NCBI GenBank assembly: GCA_964650515.1
Contig: CAZYUB010000009.1
Location: 25,093-89,092 of the forward strand
Source of the DNA: an uncultured Planctomycetia bacterium
Lineage (GTDB): Bacteria; Omnitrophota; Gorgyraeia; Pluralincolimonadales; Pluralincolimonadaceae
DNA length: 64,000 bases
Reading direction: 5' to 3'
The notes under the pieces were generated by a model. That model had not been told where the DNA came from. It worked only from the letters and a program-made list of their open reading frames with translations, and did no database searches. Each line of letters starts with the position of its first letter. Position 1 is the first letter of the stretch. A program made the position numbers and the translations under genes. Positions 7,176-10,871 of this stretch are shown here, one piece after another.

Positions 7176-7914
7176 AAGGCGCATAACCGGCAGGGCCGGG
7201 CTCACTCTCGTCGAGATACTCGTCGTCGCGGTGATATTCACTATCCTGGTCCTCGCGCTTTTTACCGTCTTCAGGGGCGCGCTTGATTCATGGCGCAAGT
7301 CCGAGACGCTCCTCGACATGTACCAGAACACGAGGTTTACTTTCGAGCTTATGCGCAAGGAGATACCGGCATCGGTGCTCTACCAGGGGTCCAACAACAC
7401 CGCCTACTGGACGAAGTTCGAGGGCAACGACAGCGGGAGCGCCGCGATAATAAAGACAAATTCGGTAGGCGACGAACTTTTCTTCGTCGCGCCGGTCGCC
7501 GGCAACCCCGGGGACCAGGACCTCTGCGAGGTCGGGTATTGGTTGCGCAACGATAACTGCCTCATGAGACATTTCGAATATTACGACGGCAGCACGGTGC
7601 CGGTGGCCTACGATTTCGCCGTCAATAACGCCGGCACGACGTCGGCCGATGTAATCGCGCGCAACGTATCGGCGATCAGTTTTGTTTACTATTACAGGAA
7701 CGCCGTGGGCGCGGTGCCGTCGGCAACGGCAACGAGCTGGGACTCAAGCACCGACACGCTGACCGGCGGTAACCAGAATATTGATTCCTCCGGCAACGCG
7801 CTCATACCGGACGGTTTGCCCGAAGCGGTAGAGGTCTCCCTGACCGTCCAGAGCAGGGACGGCCTTCAGCAGAAGACGTTCACGGATTTCATCCTAATTC
7901 CGGGTGCAAGATGA
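7159..7914 (+). CDS. Minor pseudopilin, GspJ/GspH-like (251 aa)
   Basis: Prepilin-type N-terminus …GRAG|LTLVEILVVAVIFTIL with Glu+5, preceded by a basic leader. Confidence 0.6.
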   Translation: MSLTGRRRITGRAGLTLVEILVVAVIFTILVLALFTVFRGALDSWRKSETLLDMYQNTRFTFELMRKEIPASVLYQGSNNTAYWTKFEGNDSGSAAIIKTNSVGDELFFVAPVAGNPGDQDLCEVGYWLRNDNCLMRHFEYYDGSTVPVAYDFAVNNAGTTSADVIARNVSAISFVYYYRNAVGAVPSATATSWDSSTDTLTGGNQNIDSSGNALIPDGLPEAVEVSLTVQSRDGLQQKTFTDFILIPGAR

Positions 7915-10871
7915 AAACTGAAGCGCGGACCATGAAAGTCAAGAGGGGCGTAGCGCTGATAATCGCCGTCGGTGTGCTGGCACTCGTCGCGATGATAGCG
8001 ACAAGTTTCGCGATCAATATGCAGATGGAATACAGGGCCACGCTTAACTTCGTGAACCAGTCGCAGGCCGCGAACCTCGCCCAGGCAGGCATAGACAGGG
8101 CTATCGCGGACGTGCGGTCCTGGATCTCGAATAACAGCTATACCGTTGCGATGAACAATATAAGCGCCAATTATTCCTCTCCGGGTACCGAGGTAAGCAT
8201 TCCCGGAGGGACCTACCAGGTATACGTGGAAAGGGAAGACCAGAAGATAAATATAAATGCGATGGACGAGACGGATTACCCGTGGATAGATACGCTTATG
8301 GCGGCGGGTTTGAGTGATGTTGATGTCGCAAGGCTGATAGATTACAGGGACCCTGACTCCAACGCGACGACCCAGCTTCTCAGGTCAACGGGCGTGATCG
8401 CGGCGGCCGGCAACGAGACGAACGCAAAGAATGCCCCGTACGCGACGGTCGAGGAGGTAAGGCTCGTCCTTAATAACGATACGAAATACAACGCGATAAA
8501 GAACCTGGTCACCGTGTCCGCGCCGCTTATACAGGGAGGGCTCATAGGGAAATATTACTCAAACAGGTTCGCTGTTTGGGATAATACCACTTTATTGAGC
8601 TTGGGCTATTACAAGGGAAAGGTCATAGAGCTTGGCGCGTTCAAGGAAGCGAAGGCAGGAGCATCCAGCCCTTGGCCGCCATCCGGGACATTCGGCACAT
8701 ACGGCGCAGACGGTGATAATTCGGGTTGGTCCGAAGCGCACGATGCGGAGTTCGCCGGCGGCTATATTGCCACGGATTGGGCGCATTCGTTCGGCATCGA
8801 TTGCTTCGGCGCCGTCTGGACAGGTTTCATCTATATACCTCCGGACAAGGTAAACCAGAACATAACGTTCAGGATGCGCAGCGAGAACGGCGTCAGGTTG
8901 TTTATAGACGGGGTAAGGCTGATCGAGGACTGGACCGACAGGAGCATGGGGGCATGGCCCGCAACGAATATCCTGAGCTGCACGACGAATATGTTCACCC
9001 ATTCCGGATGGCACCCGATAAGGATAGAATATTATAACAGGGCAAACCAGAATATGGTCGAATTGAAATGGAACGCGTTCGGGGGTGAGGATTATGTCCC
9101 GGCGGATTATTTCGCGTTCTACCCGGCGTCGTATTACGGCGACAGGGTCCTGGATACGGTGCCGCCGACAGTTACCTACAAGACCCCCGGGACGATGCAA
9201 TCCGGATACGATTCCGCGGGCATCCTGAAGGTCGTCTCGATAGGAAGGGCAAAGAGGGCGGACGGCGCGGTCCTTGCGGAAAAACGCGTCACATCTGTGG
9301 TGGAGGCGTTCAATACGCTGACCCAGACGACAAGGGCCGAGTTCTATGCAGCGTGGTTCAACGACTGTGATAATTACAGCGAAGGCGAGATAAAGAACGT
9401 GAACTGGCTCGACTCGTGCCCGACGGGCACGGACGCCTTCAACGCTTCAACATGGGAGATGAACTGGGATGAGACCGGTTATTCCCGCATCGCGGATTCC
9501 GTGAAATTGGGATATTGGGATAATTTCGATGACGATGTCGGTTTCACGGTAATAAACTGGCGCGGCGGTTACTGGTCGCGGCTCCAGGGCGTTTCGGATT
9601 TCAGGAGCTATACATTTGCCAGCGGAAATACATACAGCATTCCCCACAGCGTCGACTGGTTCGGCGACCAGAGATGGGACTGCAGCTTCTCGTCTTTCCT
9701 GTTGAGGGAAGGCGCGAACGGAAGTTATTGCCTCAGGTTCGACAACGAGGGTTATTATATGAAGGGCTCTCCGGCAACGCGGCGCTATCCGGAAGAGAGG
9801 ACTGCGGAATTGAACGGCCAGTTCTATACTCCCAGTTTGCCACAGGGAGGCGACATGTTCGTAAGGGCCTATGTATATGACGACGGCCAGAAACAGACCG
9901 ACAGTATCGATTGGCACAGGCCGCCCAGCAAGCGCCTAACAAATTTCGGCCAACCCATGCCCGTCTATACTCCGTCTTGGATAGTGGGGTGGCTTGTGGC
10001 AAAGGATTACGCTTCTACACCGGGTACGCTTAAGCCCGGAGGCGGTTTTTATACGGTGATCAATGACGGCGATAACGACCTCTATTGGGTGGATAAATCC
10101 GAGATGGAATGCCCGGGATATTTCGCCAGGACTCCGGCCACTTATTCTATCAATACCGGAGATACGACATTCCATTATGTCCTGGGATCGGTAGGCGCAG
10201 GAAGCACTTACAGGGCGTATTATTCTTATCGCACGTCATCATCGGCGGGATTGGCCTCCGGTGCCGCTGGAACCGTGGGTGGCATACCAGGCCCCCCGGT
10301 GGGTAATCCCCAAAGGGTAGTAAAGGCCAGGGCAACCAACCTGTACTATGCCCCGATAAATGAATTCTGGTATGACCAGGAAGTGTTGGGCAAAGTCTAC
10401 CCGAATATCCGCGGTTATGACCTTATGGAAGATATTGCAGAAAGGAACGGCGACTGGTTCGGCTGCGATTCCGAGAACGTTACCATCTTCGATAACATAA
10501 GGGTGATATATTCAAGAGGATTCCTCGTATCGGCGCCTATGATAGCGAAATTGTCGACGGATAACTCTACTATACGCTGGGGCGCGATATCTTACGGGAC
10601 ATCGAACGGGGCAGGCACATCCGTCACTATGTATGCTAGGGCGTCCGATACACCCTCGACAAGTGATGATTTTGCCACCATATATGCGAACGGCGCGTCA
10701 ATATCTGCCTTGGGCGGCAGAAAGCTGCAATATAAGGCCCTATTGGCAACGGCAGCCCTGAATCCCGGAGATGGCCCCGCATTCTATACATCAAGTTCGG
10801 CTACCCCGGTGCTTACGGGCGTCACGGCTACTTATTACAGGCAGAAAGCACGTGTATTATACCAACAGTAA
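7911..10871 (+). CDS. Giant GspK-like pseudopilin (986 aa) with inserted PA14 domain and long C-terminal extension
   Basis: N-terminus KRG|VALIIAVGVLALVAMIATSFA has no Glu+5, the GspK hallmark. ININAM/…APYATVEEVRLV region resembles GspK. A PA14-like segment GLIGKYYSNRFAVWDN…GAVWTGFIYIPPDKVNQNITFRMRSENGVRLFIDGVRLIEDWTD…IRIEYYNRANQNMVELKWN is present. Shares the SVKLGYWDNFDDD and WLDSCP motifs with the other two giants. Confidence 0.75.
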   Translation: MKTEARTMKVKRGVALIIAVGVLALVAMIATSFAINMQMEYRATLNFVNQSQAANLAQAGIDRAIADVRSWISNNSYTVAMNNISANYSSPGTEVSIPGGTYQVYVEREDQKININAMDETDYPWIDTLMAAGLSDVDVARLIDYRDPDSNATTQLLRSTGVIAAAGNETNAKNAPYATVEEVRLVLNNDTKYNAIKNLVTVSAPLIQGGLIGKYYSNRFAVWDNTTLLSLGYYKGKVIELGAFKEAKAGASSPWPPSGTFGTYGADGDNSGWSEAHDAEFAGGYIATDWAHSFGIDCFGAVWTGFIYIPPDKVNQNITFRMRSENGVRLFIDGVRLIEDWTDRSMGAWPATNILSCTTNMFTHSGWHPIRIEYYNRANQNMVELKWNAFGGEDYVPADYFAFYPASYYGDRVLDTVPPTVTYKTPGTMQSGYDSAGILKVVSIGRAKRADGAVLAEKRVTSVVEAFNTLTQTTRAEFYAAWFNDCDNYSEGEIKNVNWLDSCPTGTDAFNASTWEMNWDETGYSRIADSVKLGYWDNFDDDVGFTVINWRGGYWSRLQGVSDFRSYTFASGNTYSIPHSVDWFGDQRWDCSFSSFLLREGANGSYCLRFDNEGYYMKGSPATRRYPEERTAELNGQFYTPSLPQGGDMFVRAYVYDDGQKQTDSIDWHRPPSKRLTNFGQPMPVYTPSWIVGWLVAKDYASTPGTLKPGGGFYTVINDGDNDLYWVDKSEMECPGYFARTPATYSINTGDTTFHYVLGSVGAGSTYRAYYSYRTSSSAGLASGAAGTVGGIPGPPVGNPQRVVKARATNLYYAPINEFWYDQEVLGKVYPNIRGYDLMEDIAERNGDWFGCDSENVTIFDNIRVIYSRGFLVSAPMIAKLSTDNSTIRWGAISYGTSNGAGTSVTMYARASDTPSTSDDFATIYANGASISALGGRKLQYKALLATAALNPGDGPAFYTSSSATPVLTGVTATYYRQKARVLYQQ
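8532..9074 (+). other. PA14-like domain inside giant GspK-like protein 1 (aa ~208-388)
   Basis: Motif run GL.GKYY…F…W.G.IYIP…Y.F…DGVRLFIDG…I.IEYYN is characteristic of PA14 (the anthrax protective antigen/glycosidase/adhesin beta-barrel). Confidence 0.65.

Follow-up and report, generated by a model that had tools for sequence, protein, structure and literature searches.

A threefold enlarged K-type minor pilin with an inserted PA14 domain: a probable tip subunit and candidate adhesin of an Omnitrophota type IV filament machine

In a 64,000-nucleotide (nt) stretch of an uncultured Omnitrophota genome (contig CAZYUB010000009.1 of assembly GCA_964650515.1, forward-strand positions 25,093 to 89,092; hereafter the window), one gene of a type IV filament cluster encodes a pilin-like protein of 986 amino acids (aa) that carries a PA14 domain, here called PA14-K. 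We read this protein as the K minor pilin that sits at the apex of a type IV filament machine in Omnitrophota and that two ligand-binding modules have enlarged threefold; it probably acts as a tip adhesin, and to this reading we assign a probability of roughly 0.6. Its parts differ in firmness: the structural identity of PA14-K as a K-type (GspK-like) minor pilin is very likely, and the odds of an adhesin role are about even. The tip position is the natural inference from the location of the gene directly after GspI- and GspJ-like genes, together with its being the sole K-type gene in some relatives.

An earlier note on this DNA, made from the letters and a list of open reading frames (ORFs), had proposed a 986-aa ORF starting with a GspK-type prepilin segment devoid of Glu+5, and both points are borne out. 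The ORF comprises 986 codons initiated by ATG within a run of co-directional genes, its ATG overlapping the stop codon of the upstream GspJ/PilW-like gene (ATGA), and its translation is coupled to that of the GspI/GspJ-like genes. It is a conserved gene, with 30 homologues that all have PA14. The gene and its N-terminal elements are as follows:

7911–10871, plus strand: K-type (GspK/PilX-like) modular minor pilin, whole gene, 986 aa, ATG start
7911–7949, plus strand: class III (prepilin-type) leader read from the sequence, aa 1–13, last residue Gly13
7950–8525, plus strand: GspK-like N-terminal part, aa 14–205, with a hydrophobic α1N lacking Glu+5

The N-terminus, MKTEARTMKVKRG/VALIIAVGVLALVAMIATSFAI (here and below, the slash marks the end of the leader or signal peptide), consists of a short basic leader to Gly13 followed by ~22 hydrophobic residues; Met8 is an alternative start, used in the homologue P0002. 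The +5 residue is Ile in PA14-K and in two paralogues encoded downstream, K2 and K3, and Glu+5 is present in the G-, I-, and J-like pilins upstream (KG/FTIIE, SG/FTLIE, and AG/LTLVE). The class III signal peptide is kept in 27 of the 30 family members, the remaining three being N-terminally truncated; the IPR012902/N_methyl motif was not detected in PA14-K in a Pfam-type scan. It is very improbable that the N-terminus is an uncleaved signal anchor and the protein not a filament subunit but a lectin or glycanase, periplasmic or at the surface, that is tethered to the membrane and only resembles GspK. Beyond the leader, a long α1 helix extends to aa 74, with pilin strands at 93–108 and helices at 182–196, and the first helix-hairpin-helix (HhH)-like repeat of the α-domain is kept (KININAMDET...GLSDVDVARLIDYRD). 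PA14-K has the pilin fold with an α-domain inserted in the β-sheet, as in PDB 3CI0 and 5VTM, and the match to the GspK fold is strong. PDB sequence searches for GspK, whether they started from the single protein or from the family profile, returned PA14 chains only. Most of the sequence similarity to GspK resides in the N-terminal helix, which the crystallised constructs do not include.

The PA14 domain interrupts this fold:

8526–9125, plus strand: PA14 domain, aa ~206–405, in the place that the second HhH repeat occupies in K2/K3 and GspK
8643–8786, plus strand: family-specific loop inside PA14, aa 245–292, conserved in sequence (GADGDxxGWxEAHDAEFAGGY)
9207–9335, plus strand: completion of the pilin β-sheet after the insert, aa 433–475 (strands 438–448, 454–465, and 468–472)

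Pfam PA14 (PF07691) matches aa 295–391 of PA14-K at 33.9 bits, against a gathering cutoff of 24, so that the domain anticipated at aa ~208–388 is confirmed by profile. Those limits were a fair estimate: the canonical first PA14 strand, GGLIGKYY, begins at aa 209, and the domain ends at ~aa 405. It has the PA14 β-barrel/sandwich fold; PF07691 matches all 30 family members (best E = 6.8e-13), and the family profile matches RsgI3 at E = 7e-23. Whether PA14 is appended to GspK or inserted in it, a question the earlier note had left to structure prediction, is decided for insertion by the fold match, the structure model, and the profile alignment to K2/K3. The NCBIfam GspK alignment pairs aa 12–202 with profile positions 2–206 of 307 and then ends. 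Profile–profile comparison of the PA14-K family with K2/K3 runs end to end (probability 100%, E = 3e-66), placing the PA14 segment (~aa 207–428) opposite the K2/K3 HhH repeat ‘APVNINTA..VL.AVL’; after PA14, both families rejoin at the strands ‘...GG.YEITSTG...A...VRIY’, aa 433–472 of PA14-K. The sequence of aa 433–475, YDSAGILKVVSIGRAK...AEKRVTSVVEAF, is homologous to FCF.PGGYYEITSTG...A.VRIY of K2/K3, and the deep family member P0030 has HHH_3 at aa 107–166 and then PA14 at aa 233–337. PA14 replaces the second HhH repeat within the GspK α-domain, and the first HhH-like repeat is retained. Within PA14, the loop at aa 245–292 (~45 residues) has G265, D278, and G283 invariant in the family and a predicted local distance difference test (pLDDT) score below 50; acidic and Gly-rich, it may bind a metal or a ligand and become ordered only upon doing so.

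The C-terminal half, aa 476–986, which the earlier note had left uninterpreted, contains the second module and a putative returning strand:

9336–10835, plus strand: C-terminal all-β region, aa 476–975, with a concanavalin-A (ConA)-like lectin/glucanase jelly roll
10836–10868, plus strand: extreme C-terminus, aa 976–986, with strand ARVLY at 981–985, a candidate cis C-β strand

The all-β region has the jelly-roll β-sandwich fold of the ConA-like superfamily of lectins/glucanases, contains the superfamily motifs NVNWLDSCP and SVKLGYWDNFDDD, and has this fold in common with the other two K paralogues of the window. As an adhesin candidate, it is at least the equal of PA14. At its end, the three paralogue families share with the rest of the superfamily the consensus ‘TPVL.DVT.TY.P...(V/I)LY’. 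The last 16 residues have pLDDT values of 91 and 87 in the full-length model, with a strand at 981–985; in a model lacking the pilin domain, the values for the same residues are 60 and 46, and the strand is lost, a pattern expected of a strand that returns to the pilin sheet from the extreme C-terminus. Assembly of the I-J-K tip complex is licensed by C-β strand addition, for which GspK and CpaL use a strand of their own (cis) and PilC/PilY1 supplies one in trans (Ellison et al. 2026, PMC13533445). A C-β strand supplied in trans by the proteins encoded downstream was considered and is unlikely, as their termini (...PSGGKKRN in the β-helix protein and ...CQRLERARK in the 397- and 402-aa proteins) are not strand-like.

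These proteins belong to three cassettes, every K gene in the window being followed by a gene for a signal-peptide protein:

10876–11766, plus strand: β-helix partner, a 296-aa secreted right-handed β-helix protein (pectate-lyase/NosD-like) with a Sec-type signal peptide, 4 nt after the PA14-K stop codon
11769–14264, plus strand: paralogue K2, 831 aa, the scaffold without PA14 and with the PF03934/HhH repeat retained
14273–15466, plus strand: K2 partner, a 397-aa secreted protein with an N-terminal PTPDL/Lepto_7_Nterm-like domain
15620–18220, plus strand: paralogue K3, ~866 aa, 48% identical to K2 (ORF listed from 15530)
18217–19425, plus strand: K3 partner, a 402-aa secreted protein, paralogue of the 397-aa protein

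Orthologues of K2 and K3 are annotated as GspK by NCBI. Through an upstream in-frame ATG, the β-helix gene is listed as a 331-aa ORF that overlaps PA14-K by 100 nt (10771–10875 region); the gene probably begins at 10876 (Sec signal peptide MIMRLMSLVTMTAMFLSQPWHFAEA/KD), which fits the 292-aa length of the orthologue in L001, one of four relatives described below. The β-helix partner has no sequence relative in the PDB. For K3, the ATG at 15530 lies only 3 nt past a −10-like hexamer, and the true start is likely the ATG at 15620 (MNKRRKKG/VALIIT), yielding 866 aa and matching the 865-aa L001 orthologue. The 397- and 402-aa proteins end identically (...MIECQRLERARK), and their sole family match is the weak N-terminal one to PTPDL/Lepto_7_Nterm.

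The 30 homologues of PA14-K are 28–80% identical to it and, where named, are called ‘PA14 domain-containing protein’ from Candidatus Omnitrophota. Searching one genome per species across GTDB for the family motifs found 42 loci, nearly all in Omnitrophota metagenome-assembled genomes, several of which have two or three family loci. Gene context was compared in relatives L001, L002, L003, and L004, at 64, 39, 38, and 28% identity, respectively. A J-like gene precedes PA14-K in the three relatives where the upstream gene is visible and identifiable; in L004, the contig starts with the upstream gene, which has a weak N_methyl match only. The window has three K genes, whereas L003 and L004 have no K-type gene besides PA14-K, which is therefore the K subunit of the machine there, not an accessory. 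In all four loci, the gene directly after PA14-K encodes a β-helix/pectate-lyase-like protein of 292–557 aa, and the partners encoded after K2/K3-type genes come from another family; the pairing of PA14 and β-helix is the most specific functional clue. The breadth of the scaffold was assessed by an exhaustive profile search with the K2/K3 alignment, clustering the matches at 50% identity, which gave 441 clusters of giant K-type pilins at E ≤ 1e-30 and 1384 at E ≤ 1e-10, the best 150 matches being mostly 650–1250 aa long. In a Pfam scan that covered the 46 longest of 129 representatives, HHH_3 was found in 15, T2SSK in 13, PA14 in five, Laminin_G_3 in four, and CBM_4_9 in one; from the latter three, the giant K scaffold is predicted to carry different carbohydrate-binding modules by lineage.

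In the mechanism we propose, PA14-K would be cleaved by a prepilin peptidase and would then join the I-J dimer, becoming the first subunit and the one nearest the tip. Its extreme C-terminal strand would fold back on its own pilin sheet, a cis β-strand addition as in GspK and CpaL, and so license assembly. The filament would extend via the secretin, exposing the PA14 and ConA-like modules at the tip, where their ligand would be a polysaccharide or glycoconjugate, carried by a surface or by a host or prey cell, with the pectate-lyase-like β-helix partner acting on or beside the same ligand. K2 and K3, both without PA14, would serve as alternative tips of other specificities, K3 having a promoter-like site to itself. 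An extension of this scheme, which we consider quite improbable, has the three giant K subunits, each with a secreted partner and one with its own promoter, capping filaments of one machine as exchangeable, phage-tail-like tips: PA14-K would carry the β-helix enzyme to the tip, and the ultra-small Omnitrophota cell would recognise, and digest its way through, the envelope polysaccharide of a host or prey, the pilus counterpart of a tailspike with a receptor-binding domain.

Several points weigh against PA14-K as a tip adhesin. Tip function is a prediction for all family members, and it is pLDDT values that suggest a return of the C-terminal strand to the pilin sheet of its own subunit. The match to NCBIfam GspK (NF037980) reaches 48.8 bits, against an equivalog cutoff of 130, and Pfam T2SSK (PF03934), named in the earlier note as a profile that should hit, matches neither PA14-K nor any of the 30 family members. 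Because PF03934 models the second HhH repeat, which PA14 replaces, and the fold match to GspK is strong, we do not take the missing hit as a refutation. Neither a prepilin peptidase nor a PilT gene lies in the 64-kb window, and passage of a ~105-kDa tip subunit through unusually short secretins is assumed. The ConA-like region shares 5–16% sequence identity with solved lectins or members of its superfamily, and the ConA-like fold also occurs in enzymes (GH16 and PL7) and in protein-binding domains.

The remaining points against it concern the sugar site of PA14:

8883–8888, plus strand: E325-N326, at the Asp-cis-Asp Ca2+/sugar dyad position of PA14 lectins in the HMMER alignment to RsgI3

In the PA14 domains of Flo5, Epa1, and RsgI, the sugar is held via the Ca2+ of an Asp-cis-Asp dyad and an Asn/Gln of loop CBL2 (PMC6852018). 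PA14-K departs from this DcisD-N signature of the Ca2+-dependent PA14 lectins (Flo, Epa, MpIBP, and RsgI), with E325-N326 aligned to the D-D of RsgI3, so it is not a canonical Ca2+-dependent PA14 lectin; Y375-N376 at the Tyr-Asn/Gln position is retained (partner Asn N376, nt 9036–9038). Across the family, the dyad is D-D in just 12 of the 30 members, E-[N/Q/H] in the clade of the window, and K-D, R-D, N-D, or similar in others. The RsgI4 of C. clariflavum tolerates D-N at this position (PMC6852018), and we found no precedent for a dyad with Glu in first place. In RsgI3 PA14B, the dyad is N-G, and the domain binds neither Ca2+ nor pectin (PMC6852018), so the PA14 of PA14-K may bind a non-sugar ligand, or sugar in a different manner. 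Sugar binding by this domain, as yet unproven, may nonetheless occur, and the ConA-like region or a protein ligand may be more important than PA14 sugar binding. The lectin-like tip probe imagined in the earlier note is thus sustained in its architecture, a K-type pilin encoded after I and J genes and bearing PA14, and weakened in its sugar chemistry by the altered dyad.

In one alternative, PA14 binds a protein and not a carbohydrate, docking the secreted β-helix protein on the pilus tip in the way CofB captures CofJ (PMC6048534; PMC8179133), the β-helix protein then being the real adhesin or depolymerase. We hold this to be distinctly unlikely. It would fit the E325-N326-type substitution throughout the clade of the window and the strict co-occurrence of PA14 with the downstream β-helix gene, K2 and K3 having a different partner family. 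Against it, the D-D dyad persists in deeper members (12 of 30), which nonetheless have the β-helix neighbour (L003 and L004), so the pairing is independent of the loss of the sugar site. The retention of N376 and Y375 of the DcisD-N signature is a further point against it.

Which machine would carry PA14-K at its tip can be judged from the rest of the cluster:

1527–4972, plus strand: two tandem PilB/GspE-type ATPases with MshEN domains
5042–6307, plus strand: GspF/PilC platform protein
6300–6797, plus strand: GspG-like major (pseudo)pilin, with Glu+5
6822–7175, plus strand: GspI/PilV-like minor pilin
7159–7914, plus strand: GspJ/PilW-like minor pilin, whose stop overlaps the PA14-K start
19502–25895, plus strand: assembly and outer-membrane parts, from a PilM-PilN fusion to two tandem short secretins

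The gene order is LarC, the two ATPases, GspF, G, I, J, PA14-K, the β-helix gene, K2, the 397-aa gene, K3, the 402-aa gene, and PilM-PilN with the parts that follow, and 3′ of the cluster lie housekeeping genes, from PolA onward. After the K3 partner come the PilM-PilN fusion (Amuc_1101-like), an Amuc_1100-like protein of 254 aa, a 223-aa protein, a TPR/N0 protein, and the two secretins. Their NCBIfam matches (Amuc_1101, E = 7e-81, for the PilM-PilN fusion; Amuc_1100, 1e-9; Amuc_1098 pieces, 3e-13 to 5e-42) are all below the equivalog cutoffs. The PilM-PilN fusion has a GspL-like layout, but is PilM/Amuc_1101 by profile. The outer-membrane component is split (22541–25895) into a 372-aa TPR protein with weak N0/STN-like matches and two secretins of ~370 aa that have the N3 and secretin domains only; the three proteins each match a different part of the 805-position Amuc_1098 model, an arrangement that recurs in L002–L004. 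No matches to GspC, GspH, or GspM were found in the cluster, nor was a full-length GspD with N0–N3, and the relative L003 has a PilT-like ATPase of 356 aa within its cluster. A classical type II secretion system (T2SS) is rejected on this part content, and since GspC, GspH, and GspM are absent and a relative has a PilT-like ATPase, the description that suits the machine best is that of a type IV pilus-like system of the Akkermansia/PVC type. Such clusters in Omnitrophota have been read as type IVa pili (PMC10066038), and for PA14-K ‘pilus’ fits better than the ‘pseudopilus’ of the earlier note.

Could the cluster nevertheless work as a secretion piston, that is, a T2SS with a short periplasmic pseudopilus whose PA14/ConA-like tip recognises cargo, chiefly the β-helix enzyme, and pushes it through the secretin? 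We judge this unlikely. The best NCBIfam matches of ATPase 2, GspF, GspG, and GspI are T2SS models, with ATPase 2 above the GspE cutoff; the order G-I-J-K is T2SS-like, and the window has no PilT. The signal-peptide protein gene after each K gene, the invariant pairing of PA14-K with the β-helix gene, and a degenerate sugar dyad compatible with a protein ligand would all suit a cargo. On the other side stand the missing GspC, GspH, and canonical GspL/GspM, the PilM-type and Amuc_1100/1101/1098-type pilus proteins encoded downstream, the PilT-like ATPase of L003, and the published reading of such clusters as type IVa pili (PMC10066038); moreover, a 100-kDa tip with two lectin folds is hard to justify for a single small cargo.

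Compared with known systems, the tip adhesin that we favour is new in its details rather than in principle. Modular pilins, composed of a pilin module and a functional module that is not pilus-specific, have been defined in a survey that places PA14 among the 15 modules most often grafted and that classes GspK and ComZ, with their inserted domains, as modular pilins (Raynaud et al. 2021, PMC8179133). PA14-K is one of them, with its GspK fold, PA14, and ConA-like region. Glycan binding has been demonstrated for S. sanguinis PilC (PMC9934059), and a lectin-bearing tip pilin is already an established principle (Raynaud 2021; Shahin 2023; Ellison 2026). The combination of pilin and PA14 is therefore not new in itself (PMC8179133). 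New in PA14-K are the K-type carrier, the placement of PA14 in lieu of part of the α-domain, and a second, larger lectin-fold region ahead of the inferred returning C-terminal strand; new at the locus are the conserved β-helix partner, three K cassettes in one operon, and the uncultured phylum. A literature search found no work combining ‘PA14 domain’ with GspK or pseudopilin, and the Omnitrophota literature consulted made no mention of PA14, GspK, or pseudopilins.

Relative to GspK/XcpX, the tip minor pseudopilin of the T2SS (PDB 3CI0 and 5VTM), PA14-K is three times larger, has PA14 in place of the second HhH repeat of the α-domain and a ~500-aa ConA-like region between the pilin sheet and the C-terminal strand, and belongs to a machine that is not a canonical T2SS. 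With S. sanguinis PilB (vWA) and PilC (Ig-like and ConA-like lectin), it shares a pilin carrier, adhesive modules that are not pilus-specific, a ConA-like lectin fold, and a predicted tip site. Those modular pilins have the module on a short linker to a small IPR012902 pilin, whereas PA14-K, predicted from sequence in a diderm, uncultured phylum, has a K-type carrier with one module inserted in the fold and a second before the returning C-terminal strand. The K-like subunits CpaL of the Caulobacter Tad pilus and ComZ of the Thermus competence pilus likewise combine a pilin-like domain, hundreds of adhesin or receptor residues, and an extreme C-terminal strand (PMC13533445, PMC6561018), proposed in these proteins to complete the pilin sheet and license tip assembly; in PA14-K, this fold-back is a model-based suggestion, the inserted folds differ (ConA-like and PA14, versus a β-solenoid in ComZ), and the filament class is another. 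The Amuc_1098–Amuc_1101 cluster of Akkermansia muciniphila is matched in the PilM-PilN fusion, the Amuc_1100-like protein, and the secretin pieces, except that the Amuc_1098-like protein is split into three genes in the window. Finally, CofB/TcpB of type IVb pili are also large tip minor pilins with a lectin-fold domain for a ligand, which for CofB is a secreted protein of the same operon (PMC6048534): in enterotoxigenic Escherichia coli, the lectin-fold domain of CofB captures secreted CofJ (PMC6048534; discussed in PMC8179133). CofB, however, forms a homotrimeric tip with its H-type lectin domain on a linker, is unrelated to PA14-K in sequence, and has no I-J-K complex.

Omnitrophota are widespread ultra-small bacteria thought to be attached to, or to prey on, other cells, and type IV pili have been proposed as their attachment device (PMC10066038). 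No Omnitrophota adhesin has been named yet, and the PA14-K family is a concrete candidate, with a K-type tip subunit in every cluster examined, two ligand-binding folds, and a conserved enzyme-like partner. It would also widen the range of modular pilins, the K subunit taking one module in its α-domain and a large region before the returning C-terminal strand; among the related giant K-type pilins (the 441 clusters above), some have PA14, LamG, or CBM4_9. PA14-bearing members would be missed by surveys based on the N_methyl motif or PF03934. Should the β-helix partner ride on the tip, this would be a new mode of enzyme delivery by a pilus.

The MshE-type motif that binds cyclic di-GMP is clear in ATPase 2 (61.2 bits against a cutoff of 38) and weak in ATPase 1 (27.3), and a small GGDEF protein is encoded at 30917–31435, 5 kb downstream of the cluster; together, they suggest control of filament assembly by cyclic di-GMP. 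Among sigma-70-like matches in the first 20 kb, the best three (4985–5013, 15499–15527, and 19460–19488, plus strand; 11 of 12 positions) read TTGACA-N17-TATATT/TATACT/TAGAAT, and each lies in one of the three largest intergenic gaps of the cluster, those preceding GspF, K3, and PilM-N. Promoter-like sites total 20 against 17.3 expected, which is not above chance. The placement of the best three suggests that PA14-K is co-transcribed with F-G-I-J and that K3 is separately expressible.

Directly 5′ of the first ATPase, at 307–1530, lies LarC (nickel-pincer cofactor insertion), and upstream of LarC, L001 and L002 have the same run of TsaD, MgtC, bactofilin, helix-turn-helix, and AIR carboxylase genes, by which the chromosomal neighbourhood is stable across members at 39–64% identity. 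The G+C content of the cluster shows no break from the remaining window, so it does not look like a mobile island. Over the whole window, every 2-kb bin has positive GC and AT skew, the cumulative GC skew climbs monotonically, and nearly all genes are on the plus strand, a pattern that fits a single replichore arm with strong strand bias. Two ORFs, 40920–42989 (689 aa) and 54324–55727 (467 aa), had no Pfam match at E ≤ 1e-5; the latter shares more than 300 nt with its neighbour upstream and may be spurious or mis-started. A row of methyl-branch Wood–Ljungdahl/folate genes at 42996–50614 (formate–tetrahydrofolate ligase, FTCD-like cyclodeaminase, FolD, MTHFR with its C-terminal partner, and a MetH-like methyltransferase) fits the acetogenic metabolism that has been reported in some Omnitrophota.

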